Shown here one piece after another: positions 62,988-63,101 of a stretch of 64,000 nucleotides of DNA; position 1 is the first letter of the stretch; each line of letters starts with the position of its first letter. Source of the stretch: Escherichia coli (GTDB taxonomy: Bacteria; Pseudomonadota; Gammaproteobacteria; Enterobacterales; Enterobacteriaceae). The translations under genes were made by a program, and so were the position numbers. The stretch lies in the NCBI RefSeq assembly GCF_013315695.1, contig NZ_CP054353.1; one strand, given 5' to 3'. The notes beneath the pieces are model-generated. The model ran no database searches. It was not told where the DNA came from and saw only the letters and a program-made list of their open reading frames with translations.

Positions 62988-63101
62988 TTATTCATCAGAG
63001 AAAAAACGCTCGATCTTTTTCACTGAATTAATAATTCGCATAATCCCAATGGCGCAGGCCACCGAAATAATCAGAACAAGCCATGAGATAAATATACTCA
63101 T
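62988..63101 (-). CDS. Small hydrophobic protein, 37 aa
   Basis: MSIFISWLVLIISVACAIGIMRIINSVKKIERFFSDE; its ATG overlaps the stop of the upstream ORF (ATGA); below the ORF-track cut-off. Confidence 0.35.
   Translation of the reverse strand: MSIFISWLVLIISVACAIGIMRIINSVKKIERFFSDE

Follow-up and report, generated by a model that had tools for sequence, protein, structure and literature searches.

A conserved gene for a predicted small membrane peptide in the early operon of P88-like prophages of Escherichia coli

Introduction

In a 64,000-nucleotide stretch of Escherichia coli DNA (contig NZ_CP054353.1 of RefSeq assembly GCF_013315695.1; the whole stretch is called the window here), a 37-codon open reading frame (ORF) occupies positions 62988..63101 of the minus strand, within the early operon of a P88-like prophage and directly behind a gene of the DUF4754 family. 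Comparison with related loci makes it nearly certain that this ORF is a genuine protein-coding gene under purifying selection. The product, referred to below as the peptide, is predicted to span the inner membrane once, and its translation is probably coupled to that of DUF4754. The best overall explanation, in which a coding gene, coupling, this topology and a role as a modulator of a host membrane protein are taken together, is held with somewhat less than even confidence. Small membrane proteins are under-studied, and those encoded by phages have repeatedly pointed to vulnerable host machines.

A Small Gene Under Purifying Selection

The ORF and its product are as follows.
62988..63101, minus strand: ORF of 37 codons, 114 nucleotides (nt) including the stop codon TAA at 62990..62988; product MSIFISWLVLIISVACAIGIMRIINSVKKIERFFSDE

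The codons run ATG AGT ATA ... GAT GAA TAA. The initial annotation of the window had placed an ATG-started hydrophobic ORF of 37 codons here; its coordinates proved exact, and the strand, which it did not give, is minus. Over residues 3–21, the 19-residue Kyte-Doolittle mean reaches 2.68, which ranks first among the 199 ATG-started ORFs of 30–60 amino acids in the six frames of the whole window. Length alone is unremarkable, because 62 ORFs of at least 20 amino acids overlap the last 3 kb of the window, and the case for the gene therefore rests on comparative evidence.

This evidence came from 98 sequences, comprising the window, annotated relatives, 80 IMG/VR loci anchored on DUF4754, Escherichia albertii, and loci reached through divergent peptides. 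The start motif of the ORF is found in all but one of them, the exception being a contig that ends right after DUF4754. An intact product is encoded at 94 of the 97 loci, with a length of 37 amino acids at 79, 41 at eight, 45 at six and 59 at one. The three broken loci carry an IS3 insertion (L004), a premature stop and, in the record of phage 503458, a frameshift. Conservation in related prophages was the test that the initial annotation had proposed for its own claim, and the intact loci, together with the selection described below, bear it out clearly. In the phage 503458 record (L006, NC_049341.1, 125..470), DUF4754 (70 amino acids, not 80) and the peptide gene are both frameshifted and the peptide is unannotated, a pattern suggestive of indel errors in the assembly or of a prophage in decay.

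Selection on the frame was measured by the ratio of non-synonymous to synonymous change (dN/dS), calculated pairwise after Nei and Gojobori over 34 distinct 37-codon alleles. The ratio was 0.24 in the frame of the ORF; the two other sense frames gave 0.88 and 1.66, and two of the antisense frames 0.80 and 2.08. The third antisense frame gave 0.29, a mirror effect that arises because its wobble positions are common with those of the ORF. A TTG-started ORF of 122 amino acids in this wobble-sharing antisense frame (62809..63177, plus strand) was considered as a true gene and rejected as spurious, since it contains one or two stops in most alleles. On a minimum spanning tree of the alleles, 49 synonymous and 44 non-synonymous events were counted where 22% synonymous events are expected (binomial p = 8.9e-11), and the same count revealed no synonymous excess in the other two sense frames. 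The non-synonymous events concentrate at three tolerant codons, 15 (A/V/I/L), 25 (N/H/R) and 36.

The family extends beyond these close alleles. An exhaustive HMMER search of 1.84 billion representative proteins returned seven clusters, all with the pattern MSxFxSWxxLI....A....RxI, which have the first 24 residues in common and differ in their tails. The contigs that carry the divergent members (57%, 62% and 50% identity) place each of them in a P2-type early operon, with its start 4 nt before the end of an 80-amino-acid DUF4754 gene. In these lineages, DUF4754 is only 32–41% identical, compared with 59–67% for the first 27 residues of the peptide, and blastn across lineages picks up the peptide gene only. 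P88-like prophages in Escherichia and its close relatives are the only place where the family occurs.

An alternative in which no functional protein is made must be considered against these data. The ORF would then be a chance or spacer frame, and its translation would merely keep ribosomes on the gap between DUF4754 and the next gene as a protection against Rho-dependent polarity. That gap, given as 240 bp between called genes in the initial annotation, measures 203 nt from the DUF4754 stop to the next ATG (62894), of which the ORF takes up 114 nt; the remainder includes the following feature.
62895..62987, minus strand: AT-rich spacer of 93 nt after the peptide gene

Short ORFs are abundant in this region, the tail of the peptide varies in length, and there is no family or literature record, all of which would fit a spacer ORF. 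This explanation is nevertheless very improbable, given that the strong synonymous excess is specific to the frame of the ORF, that residues are invariant across lineages differing at 40–50% of positions, and that the predicted helix is better conserved than the bona fide gene beside it. Furthermore, the ORF spans only 114 of the 203 nt, which leaves the 93-nt spacer untranslated.

Relation to Existing Annotation

The initial annotation regarded the ORF as unannotated, a description that did not hold. The RefSeq entry WP_000021659.1 (“hypothetical protein”) is identical in sequence, and gp07 of phage P88 (YP_009113050.1, “membrane protein”) is 92% identical, also 37 amino acids long, and begins with the same overlap of the DUF4754 stop. 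ON470599 names the gene “putative membrane protein”, and a UniRef entry carries the name “Prophage membrane protein”, with the exact sequence present on at least 1000 contigs. Peptides found by tblastn in 12 phage records are 81–97% identical (P88, 92%). By full-length similarity and synteny, the peptide is thus a member of the uncurated P88 gp07/WP_000021659 cluster; P88 gp07 and WP_000021659.1 belong to the same gene family, with no structural difference. Standard pipelines already recover the gene, whose sequence and context are those expected in the early operon of a temperate phage. It is an ordinary, well-supported small gene, one of the small phage-encoded membrane peptides, and would not surprise a specialist.

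Searches of Pfam, NCBIfam, PHROGs, PADLOC and the PDB with the peptide gave nothing past chance matches to transmembrane segments (PHROGs E ≥ 0.3). Neither Hok/Gef (PF01848) nor any other toxin family matched at E ≤ 1, and no Rfam family overlapped the ORF at the same threshold. The PADLOC defence models gave no match to the peptide and weak, chance-level matches to its neighbors. The papers on P88 and on the Citrobacter phage phiSM contain no discussion of the gene.

Start Signals and Probable Coupling to DUF4754

The start region of the peptide gene and its upstream partner contain the following features.
63098..63340, minus strand: DUF4754 gene (PF15946; Pfam E = 4.9e-54), 80 amino acids, directly upstream of the peptide gene in every locus
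63098..63101, minus strand: ATGA start/stop overlap of DUF4754 and the peptide gene, a putative translational coupling signal; every one of the 95 loci that include upstream sequence has GCATGA
63110..63113, minus strand: GGGG, a weak Shine-Dalgarno-like element with a putative function, 8 nt upstream of the ATG and inside the end of DUF4754
63082..63102, minus strand: candidate 6-bp hairpin CAUGAG(9 nt)CUCAUG, present in the predictions for all four lineages; its formation would mask the start codon along with the upstream stop

The ATG of the peptide gene (63101..63099) and the TGA of DUF4754 (63100..63098) together make up the ATGA, so that the overlap of the ATG with an upstream stop codon, noted in the initial annotation, is correct and involves the 80-amino-acid DUF4754 gene. 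At the corresponding place, divergent lineages with different DUF4754 C-termini carry GAGG or GGAGG, 7–10 nt upstream. No minus-strand promoter-like site was found in 62400–64000. The invariance of the ATGA, the lack of such a site nearby and the strict adjacency of the two genes suggest termination-reinitiation coupling, an interpretation drawn from sequence features.

Sequestration of the start codon in a hairpin is a feature of classical coupled genes. The candidate start hairpin can form in 92.5% of cells (20 distinct alleles), and four of its six pairs are invariant.

DUF4754 as a Possible Partner

An intact 80-amino-acid ORF for DUF4754 is found upstream of the peptide gene in 94 of 95 loci. 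AlphaFold2 models the protein as a three-helix bundle with an extended C-terminal tail of 14 residues, with a predicted local distance difference test score (pLDDT) of 91.6. A Foldseek search of this model against the PDB and the viral models of BFVD gave no match at E ≤ 0.001, and the only matches of the DUF4754 profile in the PDB, to designed helical repeats, were rejected as a composition effect. With no fold or profile match, DUF4754 therefore offers no clue to function.

The taxonomic range of DUF4754 is the same as that of the peptide and equally narrow. A profile search found it in Escherichia, Shigella, Salmonella and Citrobacter only, and a DUF4754-anchored scan of one genome per species found E. 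albertii and a mis-binned metagenome-assembled genome (MAG) only. The latter is a 4-kb contig (L087, JAIJJM010000267.1) binned in a “Collinsella sp.” MAG, whose DUF4754 is 96% identical to the gene of an E. coli prophage; mis-binning or contamination is almost certainly responsible. Proteins of 103–116 amino acids labeled “DUF4754” were considered as natural fusions of DUF4754 with the peptide and rejected, as they are actually frameshift read-throughs in the wrong frame or N-terminal mis-calls.

The pairing of the two genes raises the possibility that the peptide is a membrane anchor or partner of DUF4754, made by coupled synthesis at 1:1, with its tail docked on the three-helix bundle. The pair is strict, with the 4-nt overlap at every locus examined down to 32% DUF4754 identity; the two families are equally narrow in taxonomy; and a confidently modeled three-helix bundle with a free extended tail meets a peptide whose own tail is amphipathic. 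Nonetheless, an identical 41-amino-acid allele of the peptide is preceded in L093 and L094 by DUF4754 alleles with only ~40% mutual identity, so there is no allele-specific co-variation, and the tail, which would be the docking part, is the least conserved portion of the peptide and accepts frameshifted replacements. As a primary function, anchoring of DUF4754 is on balance unlikely; it would be compatible with modulation of a host protein as an addition to it.

Predicted Structure of the Peptide

Three elements of the product can be assigned to the sequence.
63039..63095, minus strand: hydrophobic segment IFISWLVLIISVACAIGIM, codons 3–21, predicted from hydropathy to be transmembrane
62997..63038, minus strand: predicted basic amphipathic tail RIINSVKKIERFFS, codons 22–35; hydrophobic moment (muH) ~0.75 (0.75–0.80 over lineages)
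63001..63006, minus strand: T6 homopolymer, codons 32–34; a T6-to-T5 slip gives the 45-amino-acid alleles (...KKIERFSLMNNDTNKTSN) at 6 of 97 loci

Computed with the family alignment, the AlphaFold2 model is one continuous helix over residues 2–35 (pLDDT 87), and this model and the hydropathy of 2.68 agree with the initial annotation in predicting a single-helix peptide. No lysine or arginine precedes the hydrophobic segment and four follow it; in every lineage the numbers are 0 and 4–7. The positive-inside rule is an established predictor of membrane topology. Applied to these counts, it predicts a periplasmic N-terminus and a cytoplasmic C-terminus.

Residues M1, S6, W7, L10, I11, A17, R22 and I24 are invariant over five diverged lineages. 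Among them, S6, L10, A17 and I24 cluster with the nearly invariant S2, S13 and I20 at 100–180 degrees of the helical wheel. In the modeled helix, this conserved stripe rich in serine and alanine is predicted to be a small/polar face of the kind used in helix-helix packing. The tail is tolerant of change, as variants of 37, 41, 45 and 59 amino acids exist and the extreme C-terminus is variable; the T6-to-T5 slip exchanges the last four residues for twelve others. The amphipathic residues 22–35 of the model could serve to bind a partner or could rest along the surface of the membrane.

The Early Operon

The region belongs to the early operon of a P2-type prophage that resembles P88 (genus Xuanwuvirus, Peduoviridae) and is inserted between ihfA and btuC. 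DNA identity is 88–96% to phages P88, P884B11, PhiR44_2, vB_EcoM-569R5, Chuche and Citrobacter phage phiSM, ~85% to phages 520873 and 503458, and up to 99.9% to prophages located between ihfA and btuC in many E. coli chromosomes. P88-like prophages with the peptide gene include those of O157:H7, O55:H7, O103, O145 and UTI89, and the 466-bp segment of DUF4754 and the peptide gene is present in 1384 of 5426 complete E. coli genomes (~25%).

In the closest annotated relative, the integrase and C-type repressor genes are followed, in divergent orientation, by a gene in the cox position, DUF4761, a 95-amino-acid ORF, DUF4754 and the peptide gene, and then by a variable block, a C4/isrK RNA region, a “derepression” gene and the replication endonuclease gpA. 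The early genes share one orientation and are separated by spacers of 10–23 nt or overlap by 4 nt, except for the 93-nt spacer after the peptide gene, in which no minus-strand intrinsic terminator was found. Placement of the ORF within an early operon, as in the initial annotation, agrees with this P2-type arrangement of co-oriented neighbors. The peptide gene is the fifth cistron of the polycistronic operon, joined to the preceding gene by the ATGA, and closes the conserved block of DUF4761, the 95-amino-acid ORF, DUF4754 and the peptide gene at the head of a Pe-type early lytic operon. As the window stops within the operon, the Pe promoter lies beyond position 64000.

Downstream, a 136-amino-acid gene (62484..62894, minus strand; phrog_9338, with no function assigned there) is present in some P88-like prophages and missing from P88 and others. 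Homology to many relatives, including P88, stops near 62911–62915, ~20–30 nt upstream of this gene, so that the spacer behind the peptide gene forms a recombination boundary at which the conserved block gives way to variable cargo.

A Possible Modulator of a Host Membrane Protein

The function proposed here is built on these features. Ribosomes that complete DUF4754 would re-initiate on the ATG of the peptide gene, and because of this the peptide would be made only when the early operon is derepressed by infection or induction. As the operon is early lytic and controlled by the repressor, the peptide should be silent in the lysogen and appear at the start of infection or induction. The product would be a single-pass inner-membrane peptide with a periplasmic N-terminus, a helix over approximately residues 3–21, and a basic amphipathic tail (residues 22–35) in the cytoplasm. 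In what is the weakest step of the proposal, the conserved face of S2, S6, L10, S13, A17, I20 and I24, with W7 at the periplasmic interface, would pack on a host inner-membrane protein. The peptide would thus act early in the lytic cycle as a small membrane-protein modulator, and not as a toxin that damages membranes non-specifically.

By analogy, we tentatively suggest that the peptide modulates a conserved inner-membrane protein in the manner of AcrZ, MgtS, MgrB and CydX, while recognizing that this is more likely wrong than right. These proteins and KdpF are single-pass, 30–50 amino acids long, often co-transcribed and coupled with another gene, and act through a helix that packs on a larger membrane protein (see also the review PMC12648545). 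The peptide differs from them in being encoded by a phage in an early lytic operon and in lacking homology to them, as the HMMER search of the 1.84 billion representatives found P88-type clusters only. Modulation of a membrane protein fits best because small residues line one side of the helix, the helix is more conserved than the neighboring protein, and the tail is tolerant. Position in the early lytic Pe operon is compatible with an early, host-directed function.

Several points weigh against this proposal. The Shine-Dalgarno element in the window (GGGG) is weak, and no compensatory changes were found in the start hairpin among its 20 distinct alleles; with this and four of six pairs invariant, the hairpin is inseparable from codon conservation of Met1, Ser6 and Trp7. 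Conservation of one face rests on five diverged lineages, the helical periodicity peak is not sharp (best angles of 65 and 110 degrees), and a face of small residues is equally compatible with self-oligomerization into a pore. Because the family is narrow, restricted to Escherichia and close relatives, the depth of conservation is limited. Finally, a literature search covering DUF4754, the peptide sequence, P88 and small prophage membrane proteins returned no functional data and no mention of either the peptide gene or DUF4754.

Self-oligomerization leads to a different explanation, in which the peptide would behave like a type I toxin or a pinholin-like peptide: oligomers in the inner membrane would damage it, collapse the proton-motive force and so shut down host metabolism early in the lytic cycle. 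The initial annotation had pointed out that small membrane peptides of phage early regions are frequently toxins or host-takeover factors, and its toxin option corresponds to this explanation. The general features of type I membrane toxins include a stand-alone transcript and uncoupled translation that is restrained by mRNA folding or processing (PMC12648545). Hok/Gef, TisB, Ldr, Ibs and ZorO are, like the peptide, shorter than 60 amino acids, combine a single hydrophobic helix with a basic stretch at one terminus, and target the inner membrane, as is predicted for the peptide. Its size, single hydrophobic helix and basic flank are therefore typical of small membrane toxins, and its small-residue face could mediate self-association. 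The gene itself is unlike a type I locus: it has no promoter signal of its own and lies in a polycistronic operon with translation apparently coupled to the upstream gene. The Rfam search gave no sign of an RNA antitoxin on the ORF, though a novel RNA may be present. One plus-strand promoter-like site inside the ORF (63017..63044, 9 of 12 matches) is followed by no terminator, and such sites occur at chance frequency (two found, 2.2 expected). A type I toxin locus was rejected as an identification of the gene, given the lack of a stand-alone transcript and of uncoupled translation; no antisense RNA signal emerged from the Rfam and promoter searches.

Other observations also argue against membrane damage. 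As reported above, the ORF overlaps no Rfam RNA, and the peptide matches neither Hok/Gef nor any further toxin family; the helix lacks charged or strongly polar residues that could line a pore; the prophage has a separate Hok/Gef gene (31589..31729) and its own holin-endolysin cassette; and early depolarization would be counter-productive for a phage with ~30 kb of replication and late expression still ahead. A membrane-damaging peptide is unlikely on these grounds. Holins and pinholins share with the peptide a small size, phage origin and, as predicted for the peptide, an inner-membrane location; they differ in being usually at least 60 amino acids long and encoded in the late lysis cassette, beside the endolysin. 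This prophage lineage has holin and M15 peptidase genes of its own ~14 kb away, which in the closest annotated relative lie in the late region (L098 23686..24398). In view of the early-operon location and the presence of the lysis cassette elsewhere, a holin was rejected as an identity for the peptide.

The position of the gene invites comparison with the early operon of phage 186. There, fil, an inhibitor of cell division, and dhr, an inhibitor of host replication, occupy the equivalent slot, which follows directly on the switch genes and precedes the non-essential or variable block. Like the peptide gene, they are small overlapping cistrons; the host-directed function is that of fil and dhr. 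Their maximum 19-residue hydropathy is 1.26 and 0.49, compared with 2.68 for the peptide, and neither is a transmembrane protein. No homology of the peptide to P2 orf78-83 or to 186 fil, dhr or gp34 was found, and the P2 and 186 early operons contain no comparable hydrophobic small ORF.

A role in early superinfection exclusion was also considered. T4 Imm is an analogue for a protein of this type. Here, the inner-membrane peptide would stop the DNA of competing phages from entering during the lytic cycle, as would suit its predicted location and predicted early expression; a helix more conserved than its neighbor would be expected if it docks on a conserved DNA-entry component of the host. Such a role is improbable, as no PADLOC model and no PHROG annotated for exclusion was matched, the gene lies in the conserved core block, away from the variable cargo sites that usually house the defence genes of P2-type phages, and the predicted silence in the lysogen removes the usual selective benefit of exclusion encoded by a prophage.

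The modulator proposal can be extended to DUF4754. In this speculative and quite doubtful scheme, DUF4754 and the peptide would form a hitherto unrecognized two-component module for early takeover of the host, in which the conserved face of the peptide docks on an essential and conserved inner-membrane machine, such as a component of the divisome, of transport or of DNA entry, and its cytoplasmic tail recruits the DUF4754 bundle. If true, the module would define a new anti-host factor family of phages, with representatives in about one quarter of E. coli genomes. Assignment of a function would annotate two “hypothetical” families together, those of the peptide and of DUF4754. The peptide is cheap to test, at 37 amino acids; both P88 and phiSM can be cultured, and phiSM lysogenizes K-12.

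Other Features of the Prophage

Several features elsewhere in the prophage were observed in passing. Rfam identified a C4 antisense RNA (RF01695; 61432..61519, minus strand; 79.1 bits, gathering score 45) and an isrK Hfq-binding RNA (RF01394; 61555..61629, minus strand; 62.8 bits, gathering score 50). They occupy an apparently empty stretch of ~320 nt upstream of the gene for a 76-amino-acid “derepression protein” (61145..61375, minus strand). This stretch looks like an antirepressor module under isrK/C4 control, of the P1/P7 ant or Gifsy-1 isrK-anrP type, inside a P2-type early operon.

A plasmid-like partition module also lies within this integrated P2-type prophage. It consists of a ParM-type segregation ATPase (319 amino acids, 56804..57763) and a small partition/stability gene (56488..57763 for the pair, minus strand), and is located immediately downstream of the replication endonuclease gene. 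At the far end of the prophage, beside ihfA, an ORF of 46 amino acids (31589..31729, minus strand) is labeled a Hok/Gef family protein in a RefSeq relative that is 98.7% identical; it is a stand-alone type I toxin gene and illustrates the form that such a locus takes.

Comparison with E. coli RIVM_C019217 (L098) showed 98–99.9% identity in the early region and chromosomal flank, compared with 74–77% in the late structural genes (~33500..55300). The prophage in the window is therefore a mosaic in which the early module is shared and the late module differs. One E. coli assembly (L094, 1..795) has the block of DUF4761, DUF4754 and the peptide gene beside a Mu-type transposase (PF02316, PF09299) and not a tyrosine integrase.

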